NCBI GenBank assembly: GCA_965369655.1
Contig: CBDUQR010000080.1
Location: 1 to 6,799, forward strand
Source: an uncultured bacterium
GTDB lineage: Bacteria > Zixibacteria > MSB-5A5 > JAABVY01 > JAHJOQ01
Length of the DNA: 6,799 nucleotides
Reading direction: 5' to 3'
Numbering within the stretch: the stretch's first letter is position 1; each line of letters starts with the position of its first letter. Positions 1-6,000 of the stretch are shown one piece after another. Position numbers: made by a program.

Positions 1-3000
1 AGGTCTACGCGAAGAAAATCCCAATGTCGCCAATTAACACAAGTTAGTACTAGTAGAAACTCAAGACCGTTCAAATGTGAATATGTCTCACTGATTTTCA
101 TCGCGCGCTTACATTTATTCTCTCTGATCTTTGTCGAAGAGTGCTGTCTGACGATCCCTCTGTCCGCTGGCCCATGGCGAGACTGTGAGCTTGTTCCCCG
201 CTTGCTTTGGATCATATACAGGTCTGTCCATTGGACGCGTCCGCAGAGTTCCTGCTATTTCCTGCTGTATCCTGTCGCGTGCAAGATCAACATACTTCGG
301 TACGATCTCCGATCCTACAGCTCGTCTGTTGTGACGAATTGCAGCAATCATTGAAGTCCCGGTTCCCAGAAACGGGTCAAATACCCAGTCGTTTTCATTG
401 GTCATGGAAAGAACGAGTCTCTCGATCAATTCCACGGGAAATTGACATGGGTGCTCAGTTTTTTCGACATGGTTACTCTTGACATTGGGGATCGTCCAGA
501 TATCGCCAAGGTTCTTACCGAGTGGATTGCAGGAGTACTTTCCCGCTTTAGGTCCCTTGAAATATTTCTTAGCCGGATACTTTTGCGGGACTCTGACAGG
601 GTCAAGGTTAAAGACATAGTCATTACTTTTTGTAAACCAGATTATCGTCTCATAGCGACCCGAGAATCGCCTTCGACAGTGCAGACCATGCTCGAAATGC
701 CAGATTATGCGATTCCGCATCTTCAGTCCGAGGTCGCTGAAGATCGGATAGAGGATTGTGTCGAGCGGGATAATCGCTCCGCGGTCCACAAAGTTGCCAA
801 CCTGCCAGCAGATACTGCCCCTCGGAGCCAGAGTTCTGACACATTTTTGTATTATCTCAGCCTGTTGCTCCACGTAGGTTTCAAGCTCCAGCTTCTTCTC
901 ATATTCCTTCCCGATGTTATACGGTGGCGAAGTGACGATAATCTGTATGGACTCATCTGGTATCTGCTCTAATAATTCGGTGCAGTCGCCGTGAAAGAGA
1001 ACAATGTGCTCGCGCGGAGAGAATTGATCGGAGATGTGGTGATTTGCATGCATTTCAGGTATCCGGATCAGTCGTACTTGTTCCAGTCAGTTCGATCACT
1101 GAAAACAATAAACAGCCTGATTGATTTGAAAGCAAGCGCGAAAAGTGGACGAGCTTTGACTGGATACTCTTGTACTTCAGTGGGATTGAACCATGACTAT
1201 CAAGCGTCAAAACCCAGTAGTATTTCCCTCACAGATTCTCCTCTTACTCTGCCCACTATCCTTCGCATCGTGGTGCCCATAACGAATTCGAGCCGTTGAG
1301 AATCATTCGCGAAGTTTCTCTCAGAAGCTTTCGCGATTTCGTCACTGATGATTTCTCGGAGCTGATTCTCGCTGATCGGTGAGAAATCATGCCCGGTGAT
1401 AGTATCCGCCATGCTCTTCGGATTGTCCGACTGGCAAAGTTCTGTCAAGAGCGTAGGAATGACTTCACGAGTGAACTGACCGCTCGAAAACGCGGTGAAT
1501 ACTTCAACAAGATCGTCGTCGGTGATTCTGGCAGTGTCAAGATCCTTTCGCCTGAGGCTTTTGATCGTCTGGGTAATTGTGGTACCAACCTCGTTGGGAT
1601 CGACTTCGCACGATGAGATGATCCTGTCGAAGATACCTCTCCTGCCTGATATCACCAGCGGCCTGATGATGTCATCCCTGATCCCAAGCTCGTGCCATCT
1701 CTGCTCTGTGTCCCATGATCGTTCGGGAAGATTCGATTCTATCCTGTCGAGTCGCTCTTTCGAGATCGGTATCGGTGGAAGGTCTGTGTCCGGGTACATG
1801 CGGTCCGGGCCGGGAAGGATTCGCTCGAAATCTGTGATGCCATTTCCGATATCCTGTCTCGTTTCGTTCGGCACACCCCGGATCGCATCGAGCGCGCGGA
1901 ACTTGATTTCTTCGAGCGCAGTTTCGACATCTTCGTCCGCGCCCCACACGACAATGGCAGCGTCAGTCAGCTTGCAGTCAGAGATAGCTTTGATACGTGT
2001 CCATTCTTCCTGAGTCAGATCGGATTCATCCGTCAAATCAGTGTAGAAGATATTCGGCATCTTGTCGAGGCACGCGATTACTCGTATTCTGCCAATCAAT
2101 TCAGATGCGAATGTTTTTCCCGGCTGGGTCGGATGATTCAGCAGGCCTGCGAAACCTGCCAGTTTGGCGCATTTGACCGTGCCGCCGGTGTCGAGTGCAT
2201 CGCGGATCGGAGCAGATTTCGTCGATGACAGTTCCGATGTGAGATCATGCTTTGTCAGCACGAGGCTTTTTCTCGAAATTCCGCGAGATTTGATCGCGTC
2301 GCGCATATCGAGCAGTGCTTTCTGTCGCAGTGCCTCCACATATGTAAGGTCGTGGACGTACCCGGTTTTGGCGATGCCTTTCATCTCGACACGAGTGCCA
2401 CCGTTGATGCTGACATTCACATCCTGTCTCACCGATCCGATGCCACGTCGCACCTTGCCGGATGCCTTGAGCATGCGTCCGATGATCTCGTTGACTTCCA
2501 TCGCTTCGTCAGGATTGAGCATATCGGGATAGGTGATGACCTCGACGAGCGGTGTCGAGAGCCTGTCCGCCTTGAATGTAACCGTGTGCCCGATGTCTGA
2601 GATTTCACGGCAGGCATCTTCTTCGAGGCATATCTGAATAATCCTGATCTTGCGGTCTTTGTATGGTACCCAACCCTCAATGCCGACGACTACCGTCCGT
2701 TGAAATCCTGTCGGTATGCTGCCGTCGAGGTACTGTTTGCGCGAGATATGGATTTCGTCGACAATGCTGCAATTCAGTAGCATCGCGAGTTCGATTGCTA
2801 TATCGAGCGCCTGCTGGTTGATCTCGAACGGCGGTGTGTCATCCATTTCGTACGTGCAGGTGCTGCCCTTGTTGAGTTGATATATGACCTGCTTCCTGGT
2901 CTTGAACTCCATCAGCGCAGTGCCGTCATATTCGCCCAGTTCCGAAAGCGTAGGTCGCATGTGGCGCAGAATAGTAGCGTCGGGTGGTTCGTGACGAAGT

Positions 3001-6000
3001 CCGACCGGACACCGGCAGAAGAGTTTCTTCTCGGTGTCGAGTTGCTGATGTATTTCTAACCCGCACTTGAATCCGAGCTTCTCAAAATCTACTGACGGCA
3101 GATCTTTTCTCATCTCACGTAATCCCTCAGGGTCCAGGGTTTGAAAAAGCTGAATATATGTCGGATGCCTGTCTGGCTCAAGCGGAAAACACGAAAGCGC
3201 TGCCGTGGTTGCACAATTATCTGATTGACAGATTGGTTTCGTGAGCGGCACATGTCCAGAGGCTGTCCCATAAGATCCGAAAAGCAGGTAATCATGTTTG
3301 CGAAAGGAAATAGCGTCATTCCCGCGCAGGCCCTTCGCTTTGCTCAGGATTGCACGGGAATCTATTGAATGCGTTATTGTTAGATAGACTCCCGCCTTCT
3401 CGGGAGTGACGTGCCCAGCTTCCCACTTGAGTCAATTGGCACTTTTGGGACAACCTCTCCACATGTGCCGAATCCGTTTGGCTCCCCCGTCCGGACATAA
3501 TGCTTGACTGAACACTCTAATCTCCGTAGCATAGAATTCCATTGCATAAACAGGAGCGAAACGAATGGTTTCGATTGTTATCTTTGTCTTAGTATTAGTC
3601 GTTGCTTTTGCCGCCATTATTATCTACAACAAATTGGTCCGGCTGAGAAACACCGTGCGATCTTCATGGTCAGATATCGACGTTCAACTCAAGAAACGCT
3701 TTAATCTGGTCCCCAGCCTTGTTGAAACCGTGAAGGCCTACGCCAAACACGAAAAAGGTGTCTTTGAGAAAGTTACCGAAGCGAGGGCAAGAGCCATGCA
3801 GAGTGGAAGCCCCAAAGATATGGCCAGGTCGGAGAACCTGTTCAAAGATACTCTCAAAAGCCTGTTTGCTGTGGCCGAGGCATACCCCGAATTGAAAGCC
3901 AACAGCAACTTCATACAACTGCAGAGCCAGTTCCAGGAACTGGAAGAAAGCATCGAGTCCGCGCGGCGATACTACAACGCAGTGGTCCGTGATTACAATA
4001 CTTCGACCGAGACGTTTCCATCGGTCATTGTTGCCTCCACCTTCGGATTCAAACCCGCAGAGTTTTTCGAGATCGAATCACCCGAAGAGAGAAAACCCAT
4101 CAAGCCGGACTTCTCATGATTAACAAGGAGGCGATTGTGCGCACGATTATCCAGGGAAGGCTCAGAGCGCCGTTCTTTATCGGATTGTTGCTTGCTCTGG
4201 TGATGGTGGGCTTTGTCCACTCTGCAAACGCCCAGCATTTTACTATCGAGCATTTCCACTCTGATATCATTATCAATGAAAATGGCTCGGTTGAAGTTAC
4301 CGAGACCATAGAGGTTGTCTTCGATCAAAGCAGACACGGCATTTACCGCGAGATACCGTTTCGCTATGTCAACGAACTGGGCGACAAGATTGTTATGCCT
4401 GTCACGGTGAAGTCGGTGTTACAAGAGGACGGCAAGGTATGGGCCTACAAGGTATCGAAGCAGGGCAATGTCGTGAACATCCGAATTGGCGATGCCGACC
4501 GCTATGTGCGAGGCAGGCAGATATACGTAATTCGCTATTTGGTTGACAATGCAATCATGTTTTTCGAAGATCACGATGAACTATACTGGAACGTCACCGG
4601 CAATTACTGGCGCGCCCGCATTAACAGAGCATCCGCCGACATTCGCCTGAATACCGACAAGGTCAACTCTGAAATGACCGGCGCCTGTTATACCGGCAGG
4701 TACGGATCTAACGAGTCTGAATGTATATTTGAGTTGTCTAAGAACGAGGCATCATTCAGTGCAGCCCGACCCCTTCGTGTCGGAGAAGGGTTCACCGTCG
4801 CTTTCGGGTGGGACAAAGGCATTGTATCGCCACCATCGAGCTGGCAACAGTTCCTGTGGACTGCGAACCTGCGAGAGAACTGGGTTTTCTCTGTTCCCCT
4901 TGCCGTCCTGATCTTTATGATATCTCATTGGTACAGAAGAGGACGGGACCCGAAAGTACGTGAGGCGATCACGGTAATGTACAAACCGCCTGAGATCGAC
5001 GGCAAACCGCTCACTCCTGCACAGGTCGGCGCACTCGTTGACGAAAGCCTCGACCAGAGAGATATAACTTCGAGCCTTATCGGTCTCGCGGTCAAGGGTT
5101 ATATCGAACTGCATGAGATGGAGCGGGAAGGTGAGGGGTGGCTGTCCGGCACAGAGAAGGATTTCATGCTCGTCAGGCTCAAAGAACCCGACGACCAACT
5201 GAGTCTGTTTGAGCGAACCCTGATGACGGAAATATTCCCCGGCGAATCCAATGAGGCATATGTCTCGGACATGAAAAACAAGTTCTATAAGAAACTGCCT
5301 GAACTGCATAAGATTATGTTCGGGGAACTGGTAAGTAAGAAATTCTTTGCAGTTAATCCAATGAAAGTAAAGGGCAAGTATGTGCTGATCGGGTTCGGTC
5401 TGCTCATAATCGGGACGTTTATTCTGTATCAGCTTTCACCGTTAGCTCCGTGGAAAGGTATAGTTGCTGGCGTCATATCCGGCTTTTCCATTATTGCATT
5501 CGCCAATGCCATGCCGGCAAAAACAAGGGCTGGCGCGCTGGCCCGCATGAACATTCTGGGTTTTCAGGAATTCATGAATAGAGCAGACAAAGACAGGCTG
5601 GAGAGAATGGGCGAAGATGTGTTCTATGAATACCTTCCATACGCCATTGCGCTTGATGTCGTAGATCATTGGGTGAAGACATTCAAAGACATCCTGACCG
5701 AGCCGCCGAGATGGTACGTAGCACCAGGAGGCTACGGAACCTTCAACACGCAACAGTTTACTCAATCCCTGACTGTTGCCACCACACATCTTGGCTCGAC
5801 CATGTTTTCAGCACCTCGAGGAAGCGGATCCTCCGGCAGCGGTGGTTTCTCGGGCGGTGGCGGTGGCGGTGGTGGCGGCGGAAGCTGGTAACGACAATAG
5901 GCCATAGGGCAGAACCATTCAGATTAAGACATCCAATCTGTGCCGCCACTATTTGCGAACCTCTCAGGAGCGAGTCACCTGCAGGATATTCATAGATGTT

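Follow-up and report, generated by a model that had tools for sequence, protein, structure and literature searches.

The window analyzed here is the whole of contig C80, 6.8 kb in length, from a metagenome-assembled genome (MAG) assigned to the bacterial phylum Zixibacteria. It encodes a GatE protein, has genes for LemA, a DUF2207 protein and PFK as neighbors of gatE, and carries the following features:

1..53, no strand assigned: terminus of a multi-copy insertion element (IS) that closes the contig; the same 53 nt occur on eight other contigs.
115..1053, minus strand: gene for an N6/N4 DNA methyltransferase (PF01555, 182.5 bits), one member of a restriction-modification pair that has entered the locus between gatE and its gatD portion.
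1200..3113, minus strand: gatE coding sequence, 637 amino acids, kinase/transamidase subunit of GatDE (curated-model scores, Pfam, structure alignment, dN/dS).
3114..3181, minus strand: probable gatE start region, with a GAGGG motif resembling a ribosome-binding site about 12 nt 5' of the ATG and a promoter-like hexamer pair at 3181-3153 (sequence reading and consensus scan).
3240..3475, no strand assigned: copy of a dispersed, MITE-like repeat, some 230 bp long, between gatE and lemA (blastn of 3114-3564 against the genome).

The open reading frame spans 1200..3251 on the minus strand, with homologs aligning from the ATG at 3113 rather than from the GTG at 3251; the start adopted is the one backed by homology. 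The promoter-like pair agrees with the consensus at 9 of 12 positions and is a weak pattern match only. The repeat beside gatE, reported in the initial annotation, was confirmed by blastn: over 50 copies, complete or partial, are spread across many contigs, and copies in opposite orientations frequently share one site.

The gene had been described as a full-length gatE, and the description holds: the reading frame is intact, and in profile searches its product exceeds both curated GatE cut-offs, with 566.8 bits against NF003107 (cut-off 456) and 493.5 bits against TIGR00134 (cut-off 319.55). The same product scores under the cut-off of every GatB model (best score 174.7 bits, where 338 is required) and by these equivalog cut-offs is not GatB. 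Pfam searches place GatB_N (PF02934) at residues 16-455 and GatB_Yqey (PF02637) at residues 506-632. Among solved structures, the earlier match to 1zq1_C was reproduced at E = 3.9e-109, while GatB chains reach only 3e-27; the alignments run end to end, over residues 8-631 for 1zq1_C and 8-628 for 2d6f_C. Residues H22, E164 and E191 align with His15, Glu157 and Glu184 of Methanothermobacter thermautotrophicus GatE, and all three are invariant across a 12-sequence GatE alignment. According to excerpts of the published work (PMC2330236), these residues bind Mg and are required for both the kinase and the transamidase activity. Scores, domain layout, Mg ligands and the presence of a GatD partner all place the protein in the GatE equivalog family. 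The gene is under purifying selection, with dN/dS of about 0.09 relative to a congeneric copy and 0.06 relative to two same-family copies, for both of which dS is saturated.

The partner gene, gatD, is found intact on contig C51 at 4899-6284 on the minus strand, scoring 510.4 bits against NF003217 (cut-off 310) and 507.7 bits against TIGR02153 (cut-off 324), as first reported. Its product matches 2d6f_A at E = 3.5e-121, again reproducing the earlier value, compared with about 4e-40 for asparaginases. The motifs TGGTIAS, HGTDT and RKMH, of which TGGTIA and HGTDT had been listed before, are present and aligned with 2d6f_A, and a GatD_N domain (PF18195) is found. A repeat of the search of 14 control genomes gave the same outcome, with the GatE and GatD models passing their cut-offs only in the four archaea.

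The location of the two genes on different contigs had been counted as a weakness of the case, but the contigs are almost certainly neighboring pieces of one locus, a reading based on synteny and on two types of IS end. In the relatives G201, G200 and G197, gatE is convergent with p472 and LpoB, both of which lie on C51 here; p472 directly faces gatE in relatives, with no restriction-modification pair between them. C51 also bears PorV/PorQ and a TonB-dependent receptor, so that gatD has clearly bacterial genes around it, and the contig opens with a gene for a BglII-type endonuclease (PF09195). Copies of the 53-nt IS terminus of C80 on the eight other contigs are 94-100% identical; seven lie at or near a contig end (C16, C89, C53, C63, C91, C90 and C7) and the eighth is on C46. 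A second type of IS end opens C51 and C54. The ends of C51 and C80 were also compared for exactly overlapping sequence, and none was found. Relatives have gatD and gatE in a single convergent locus, and the two contigs almost certainly represent that locus, interrupted in this genome by an IS copy and the restriction-modification pair.

Both genes are widespread in the phylum. Across a sample of 285 Zixibacteria genomes, GatE exceeds its model cut-off in 166 and GatD in 178. When co-occurrence is instead classed by E-value thresholds, 175 genomes have both, nine GatE only, eight GatD only and 93 neither, so that the pair is complete in 175 of the 192 genomes having either. The eight with GatD alone include a closed genome, G252, and suggest that the subunits may have separate uses. 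The initial annotation had the genes adjacent in 23 of 25 genomes, which is too generous for the present sample: of 29 relatives' loci fetched, just 9 have gatD no more than 1.5 kb from gatE, and in three closed genomes a distance of 0.16 to 1.8 Mb separates the genes. The previously cited locus (gatE at 1477-3369, gatD at 3392-4750) was found again. Their co-occurrence on closed chromosomes (G253, G189 and G159 among them) despite such distance points to selection on the pair rather than on an operon. Only gatD recurs as a conserved neighbor of gatE, in 50 of 80 loci of other genomes. Two further recurrent clusters, found at 11 and 7 loci, lie on the strand opposite to gatE or gatD, which they overlap or adjoin, and were read as probable shadow ORFs. 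Gene neighborhood was therefore dropped as a guide to function.

MAGs from numerous further bacterial phyla contain close relatives of this GatE. As had been pointed out, databases already give the name GatE to such proteins; those of the same clade, with 43-91% identity, come from MAGs labeled Zixibacteria, Planctomycetota, Eisenbacteria and Bacteroidetes. The gatE of this window thus belongs, as an ordinary member, to a very large clade in Bacteria and is no oddity of Zixibacteria. The earlier remark that papers treat GatDE as exclusive to archaea is borne out by excerpts of reviews of 2008, 2021 and 2022; the bacterial branch is annotated in databases and ignored by papers.

A phylogenetic tree separates the bacterial GatE proteins, together with a subset of those of Thermoplasmatota, as a distinct clade with support of 100, here called type 2, which is nested among archaeal GatE sequences beside one from Heimdallarchaeota. 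The GatD tree is unrooted and is read for neighbor relations only. The GatE of the window shares 32-38% identity with canonical Thermoplasmatota GatE, and the GatD 37-46% with its counterpart. Type-2 GatDE coincides with GlnRS in 167 of 184 Zixibacteria carriers, and it is the only amidotransferase in 89 GlnRS-bearing Zixibacteria without GatB. In Thermoplasmatota, GlnRS is found in nine of the 12 genomes with type-2 GatE, as against none of the 45 sampled genomes with canonical GatE only. These Thermoplasmatota GlnRS proteins are 60-66% identical to Zixibacterial GlnRS, and tRNA(Gln) genes with a retained A1-U72 pair, some of them with the bacterial G73, flank the GlnRS genes. Since reviews, in the excerpts available, state that no archaeon has GlnRS, the Thermoplasmatota enzyme is unreported. 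Three sampled Thermoplasmatota genomes with type-2 GatE (G297, G336 and G339) gave no GlnRS match; as G336 lacks canonical GatE too, the role of Glu-tRNA(Gln) amidotransferase would there fall to the type-2 enzyme.

The host genome itself was found to encode the synthetases and amidotransferase subunits that the initial annotation had listed. GlnRS is at C56:8846-10429 (773.9 bits; cut-off 425.8), AsnRS is on C23, a single GluRS is on C31, and GatCAB is complete, with GatA and GatB on C13 and GatC on C1. Both tRNA(Gln) genes have U1-A72 and G73. The archaeal type of setting is therefore not what is seen here, GlnRS being present and the first base pair of tRNA(Gln) being U1-A72 instead of the A1-U72 that characterized archaeal GatDE recognizes, according to excerpts of the literature. 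With GlnRS, AsnRS and full GatCAB at hand, no need for GatDE is visible in this cell. The GluRS has Arg at the position of Thermus thermophilus Arg358, a residue that marks a discriminating GluRS; were that marker reliable, the enzyme would form no Glu-tRNA(Gln). The same Arg, however, occurs in all seven GluRS sequences compared, those of GlnRS-less relatives included, and the marker, being uninformative here, was dropped.

We consider it probable that gatE and the gatD gene a few kb away encode a working Glu-tRNA(Gln) amidotransferase of the type-2 lineage, operating beside GlnRS. In such an enzyme, GatE would bind Glu-tRNA(Gln), phosphorylate the glutamate side chain at the Mg site, and amidate it with ammonia that GatD, as an asparaginase-type subunit, would free from Gln or Asn. 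Its division of labor with GlnRS and GatCAB may take either of two forms: an additional path to Gln-tRNA(Gln), or conversion of Glu-tRNA(Gln) produced by a GluRS of relaxed specificity. The lineage falls inside the archaeal GatE radiation and has probably long been resident in Bacteria, where it occupies Zixibacteria along with many further phyla and would have been exchanged repeatedly among lineages. More tentatively, and with the odds somewhat against it, type-2 GatDE could be a cross-domain lineage functionally tied to GlnRS, the two having moved between domains as a co-adapted pair, with GatDE serving as a safeguard that converts the Glu-tRNA(Gln) still made by GluRS after GlnRS has come in, and in many bacteria thereby displacing GatCAB.

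An unlikely alternative is that GatDE has lost its action on tRNA, with GatD working simply as an asparaginase or glutaminase and GatE having taken another role, or with the genes being carried needlessly. The apparent redundancy with GlnRS and GatCAB, the genomes with GatD alone, and the unlinking of gatD and gatE in several lineages would fit this view, but a dispensable or repurposed gatE is hard to square with strong purifying selection, with retention of all the catalytic ligands and of the tRNA-binding tail domain, or with the tight co-occurrence of the subunits. Archaeal GatD, moreover, is described in literature excerpts as inactive as a glutaminase unless Glu-tRNA(Gln) is bound to GatE.

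It is slightly more doubtful still that the bacterial enzyme has changed or widened its substrate and amidates Asp-tRNA(Asn), alone or in addition to Glu-tRNA(Gln), supplying tRNA-dependent Asn as bacterial GatCAB does. The tRNA(Asn) and tRNA(Gln) of the host share U1-A72, and one enzyme reading that pair could take both; the host genome and two others (G075 and G077) have neither AsnA nor an AsnB over the cut-off, and the latter two lack GatB yet keep GatDE. Against this, of the 285 genomes, AsnB is missing in 31 of 52 that have no amidotransferase at all, compared with 24 of 91 that have GatDE only. The gap is thus commoner where there is no amidotransferase, so many of these bacteria seem to be without an Asn-making route, and GatDE is not tied to the gap; the AsnB/AsnA inventory lends no support to GatDE as an Asn-making amidotransferase. 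AsnRS is near-universal (258 of 285 genomes), and GatDE enzymes so far characterized are, in the excerpts seen, Glu-specific.

That C80 is an archaeal contig misbinned into a bacterial MAG, as its shortness and the archaeal enzymes that are the best-known relatives of its GatE might suggest, has a negligible chance of being true, given a tetranucleotide profile (r = 0.905 to the genome) like that of other contigs of equal length, the genome's own MITE and IS end on the contig, ordinary neighboring genes, relatives in which gatE faces genes of C51, both genes in single-contig genomes of the phylum, and bin contamination of 0.08%. Bin contamination was rejected on composition, relatives' synteny and the genome-wide repeat. 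Because flanking genes and composition match the genome and relatives share the synteny, we regard this as full-length GatDE of the archaeal kind in a genuine bacterial genome.

In teaching, GatDE counts as a signature protein of archaea. Views on the entry of glutamine into the genetic code and on what LUCA carried rest on this presumed restriction, along with the supposed lack of GlnRS from every archaeon. A large, old, selected bacterial GatDE clade, and the same clade beside GlnRS in some archaea, show that both rules are broken in nature. These genomes offer concrete sets of enzyme, tRNA and synthetase for asking why an indirect pathway persists where a direct one is present, and how recognition of the first base pair (A1-U72 or U1-A72) can shift.

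Compared with archaeal GatDE, the Glu-tRNA(Gln) amidotransferase known from M. thermautotrophicus (2D6F) and Pyrococcus abyssi (1ZQ1), the system described here is alike in its two-subunit make-up and in the full-length alignment of both subunits, and it shares the Mg ligands, the asparaginase motifs, the GatD_N domain and the YqeY-like tail. It differs in its host, a bacterium with GlnRS, AsnRS and GatCAB; in a tRNA(Gln) with U1-A72 and G73 rather than the A1-U72 and A73 given for archaea in literature excerpts; in the frequent lack of linkage between the two genes; and in the separate clade to which its GatE belongs. Bacterial GatCAB performs the same chemistry, and its GatB is a paralog of GatE with a catalytic core of the same fold family (Pfam GatB_N), but GatE has a large insertion, GatB_N extending over residues 16-455 against a profile of 277 positions, and its partner is the asparaginase-type GatD instead of the amidase GatA with GatC. 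From the bacterial GatDE proteins named in NCBI and JGI MAG annotations there is no essential difference; what sets this example apart is only the interruption of its locus by an IS copy and a restriction-modification pair.

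The genome under study, G000, comprises 2.99 Mb in 100 contigs and is 99.5% complete with 0.08% contamination. Contig C80, 6,799 bp in length, carries the following genes.

Genes on contig C80
115-1053, minus strand: N6/N4 DNA methyltransferase
1200-3113, minus strand: gatE
3565-4119, plus strand: LemA
4116-5891, plus strand: DUF2207 membrane protein
6069-6797, minus strand: phosphofructokinase gene, 3' part

No tRNA gene was found in the 6,799-bp window. The DUF2207 gene overlaps the preceding LemA gene (together 3565-5891), and its product ends in a long glycine run; the two are a common pair, unrelated to gatE.

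The initial annotation had reported GatE at 1200-3113 (minus strand), and this is confirmed: the product exceeds both GatE cut-offs (NF003107, 566.8 bits against 456; TIGR00134, 493.5 bits against 319.55), while the best model for the paralogue GatB reaches 174.7 bits, below its cut-off of 338. The start is the ATG at 3113, with a GAGGG motif upstream, and alignments to homologs begin there. The companion claim, GatD at C51:4899-6284 (minus strand), is borne out by NF003217 (510.4 bits), TIGR02153 (507.7 bits) and a GatD_N domain; neighbors of gatD on C51 encode PorV/PorQ, a TonB-dependent receptor, LpoB and an HD-domain protein. In GatE, H22, E164 and E191 occupy the aligned positions of the Methanothermobacter thermautotrophicus Mg ligands, mutation of which abolishes activity according to PMC2330236, and GatD keeps its nucleophile and triad motifs. 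For gatE, dN/dS is 0.09 against a same-genus copy (dS 0.98) and about 0.06 against two same-family copies, for which dS is saturated. Across the phylum Zixibacteria, GatD and GatE are kept together even where their genes lie megabases apart.

That an archaeal-type GatDE resides in a bacterial genome is likewise supported. C80 fits the genome in composition (GC 0.504 vs. 0.518; tetranucleotide r = 0.905) and carries G000's own dispersed repeat, a MITE-like element of about 230 bp in the gatE-lemA spacer (about 3240-3475), with more than 50 genome copies, in both orientations at many places. Single-contig genomes of the phylum also hold both gatD and gatE. The gatE of C80 is really bacterial, and the overall observation of intact gatE and gatD in a bacterial genome stands, as does the reading given to it. 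As a member of a large bacterial clade of GatDE, this gatE is intact and ordinary.

The separation of gatE and gatD on different contigs, also reported initially, is true of the assembly, but synteny and IS ends indicate that C51 and C80 form one locus. C80 begins with a 53-nt end of a multi-copy element, and C51 with the same element's other end type. Next come, on C80, the methyltransferase and, on C51, a BglII-type endonuclease missing about 40 N-terminal profile positions; these are a BglII-type restriction-modification pair (C80:1-1053 with C51:1-611, L007) situated between gatE and gene p472. The element is an IS, present in many copies and having two unlike ends; it separates the halves of this pair and breaks the assembly at this point, as it does at several further contig ends. 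In G201, G200 and G197, three genomes of the same family, gatE directly faces p472 and LpoB in convergent orientation; their G000 counterparts lie at C51:636-2740; gatD and gatE are directly convergent in G198, and convergent 3.6 kb apart on contig C56 of G200. The ends of C51 and C80 share no exact overlap, and we therefore infer the join from synteny. Because of the element end types, the restriction-modification halves and the convergent loci of relatives, the order in G000 is probably gatD-HD-p174-LpoB-p472 on one strand, then endonuclease-IS-methyltransferase, then gatE on the other strand.

The phylum set consisted of 285 genomes, G000 included, some of them incomplete; the genomes are also mutually related, so that the counts describe a pattern and serve as no statistical test. 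Curated cut-offs were exceeded for GatE in 166 of the 285, GatD in 178, GlnRS in 222, GatB in 139, AsnRS in 252 and AsnB in 167. For cross-tabulation, presence was called by E-value thresholds, with totals (GlnRS 226, GatB 142, AsnB 170, GatD 183) that match the search tallies; GatE, given its own threshold of E < 1e-50, was present in 184 genomes. By these thresholds, 175 genomes have both GatE and GatD, nine GatE only, eight GatD only, and 93 neither. The nine with GatE only are all at most 93% complete. Those with GatD and no detectable GatE include the closed genome G252, as well as G255, G193 and G282; genus g115 includes two species with both genes and two with GatD only.

Presence (+) or absence (-) of GatE, GlnRS and GatB in 285 Zixibacteria genomes
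GatE+ GlnRS+ GatB+: 78
GatE+ GlnRS+ GatB-: 89
GatE+ GlnRS- GatB+: 15
GatE+ GlnRS- GatB-: 2
GatE- GlnRS+ GatB+: 24
GatE- GlnRS+ GatB-: 35
GatE- GlnRS- GatB+: 25
GatE- GlnRS- GatB-: 17

The commonest state, therefore, combines GatDE, GlnRS and AsnRS and lacks GatCAB; the closed genomes G075 and G077 show it. Members of family f20 have glnS and gatE as divergent neighbors about 0.7-1 kb apart (G280:C39:10822-14664; G278:C28:15792-19934), and in G284 they are separated by about 4 kb.

As first annotated, G000 itself has GlnRS, AsnRS, GluRS, gatA and gatB; GlnRS lies on C56, AsnRS on C23, the single GluRS on C31, gatA and gatB on C13, and gatC on C1. The GluRS gene (C31:18485-20340, L169) is followed after 364 nt, on the same strand, by tRNA(Gln-CUG). 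There is one AspRS, of bacterial type; AsnA is absent and no AsnB scored above cut-off. Among the tRNA genes, the two for Gln and the one for Asn have U1-A72 with G73; those for Glu and Asp have G1-C72. An Arg at the position of Thermus thermophilus Arg358, which we take to be the mark of a discriminating GluRS, proved uninformative, as the GluRS of GlnRS-less relatives has the same Arg; theirs is another GluRS type, only 34% identical. Of the two GluRS genes in the closed genome G253, one follows gatE on its strand at a distance of 1.6 kb (C1:1515583-1520467; L171, L022), and the gatD of this genome is 1.4 Mb from gatE. A role for GatDE as asparagine supplier found no support in the AsnB/AsnA inventory. 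GatE, GatB and AsnB are all missing from 31 of the 285 genomes, including G205, G207 and G208, which are 94-98% complete, and AsnA was absent from all five phylum genomes checked; many members of the phylum may be asparagine auxotrophs.

The family extends well beyond the phylum. A protein search with GatE returned at least 8,000 matches; among the matches listed, those following the Zixibacterial ones were 51-55% identical proteins, named GatE by NCBI, from MAGs of Planctomycetota, Eisenbacteria, Bacteroidetes and Thermoplasmatota. Scanning a single genome for each species yielded at least 600 stretches, 597 of them confirmed. The best 80 of these show 43-57% identity, and only three carry archaeal labels; the rest are labeled as bacterial MAGs of Ignavibacteria, Bacteroidota, Chlorobiota, Calditrichota, KSB1, Fermentibacteria, Krumholzibacteriota, WOR-3, Marinimicrobia, Caldisericia, Acidobacteriota, Planctomycetota, Myxococcota and further groups, and in some cases the contig measures 1-2 Mb. 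In 50 of the 80 best loci gatD lies within 4 kb of gatE, and no other recurrent neighbor was found in them. Submitter labels contradict the sequence in some MAGs (L040, L105, L108; P0036): L040, labeled Ignavibacteria, encodes a GatE identical to that of the Zixibacterial genome G258, so its label is wrong, and the "Thermoplasmata archaeon" GatE P0036 is recorded on a 5.16-Mb contig.

Thermoplasmatota, with GatE in 58 of 61 sampled genomes, have two kinds. The canonical kind is 32-38% (GatE) and 37-46% (GatD) identical to the G000 proteins in the subset of copies compared; each of 15 copies retrieved afterwards gave a better match to a canonical reference than to G000 GatE. The other, type-2, is 41-51% (GatE) and 60-78% (GatD) identical, and occurs alone in seven genomes and with a canonical copy in five. 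A FastTree of 157 rows, rooted on G000 GatB, separates a canonical clade of 33 rows (support 100) from a type-2 clade of 122 (support 96), within which 108 bacterial rows group together (support 91). Searching 1.84 billion cluster representatives with a profile gave 1,533 clusters at E <= 1e-30; with 143 representatives added, the type-2 clade stayed intact (support 100) and none of the 143 fell inside it. A short IQ-TREE search (LG+C20, 81 rows) gave type-2 an SH-aLRT support of 100, with a Heimdallarchaeota-labeled GatE as sister (support 93), the two nested among archaeal sequences including Thermoproteota and Methanofastidiosum representatives. Thermoplasmatota type-2 copies lie at or near the clade base, in a poorly supported branching order. 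Zixibacterial GatE occupies at least four separate places in the bacterial part, that of G000 grouping with families f1, f2, f16 and f17 (support 96). Three GatE sequences, L160 (G300:C89), P0217 and P0268, fall between the canonical clade and the type-2 clade; the GatD encoded next to L160, 52% identical to that of G000, is also intermediate, and G300 has GlnRS. On our reading of the trees, type-2 probably began as a branch of the archaeal radiation; it would have resided in Bacteria for a long time and been exchanged between lineages. Since the root is one long GatB branch, the direction of transfer can only be inferred.

Of the 61 Thermoplasmatota, 13 have a GlnRS above cut-off, with scores of 685-745 bits.

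GlnRS by GatE state in Thermoplasmatota
Type-2 GatE, alone or with a canonical copy: 12 genomes, GlnRS in 9
Odd GatE branching between the kinds (G300): 1 genome, GlnRS in 1
No GatE match: 3 genomes, GlnRS in 3
Canonical GatE only: 45 genomes, GlnRS in 0

Type-2 GatDE, therefore, is the kind that accompanies GlnRS, in both domains, as a correlation among related genomes. These GlnRS proteins are 60-66% identical to that of G000 (L177-L188; e.g., G302, G319, G304, G285). Their genes are flanked by tRNA(Gln) at 8 of 12 loci and by tRNA(Glu-CUC) at 5 of 12; the order in G302 is tRNA(Gln-CUG), glnS, tRNA(Gln-UUG). A1-U72 is present in every one of these flanking tRNA(Gln) genes, and position 73 is G or A.

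The exclusivity to archaea that the initial annotation attributed to published work is indeed found in reviews of 2008, 2021 and 2022, which confine GatDE to archaea. Full-text literature searches, with subscription journals mostly outside them, found no report of bacterial GatDE or archaeal GlnRS, and no mention of GatDE together with Zixibacteria. The bacterial GatDE clade is named in databases and ignored by the literature; it is this clade, and its tie to GlnRS across domains, that deserve attention. The 2022 review holds that GlnRS is missing from every known archaeon and that tRNA(Gln) in archaea carries A73; contrary to that rule, the Thermoplasmatota GlnRS genes are bona fide.
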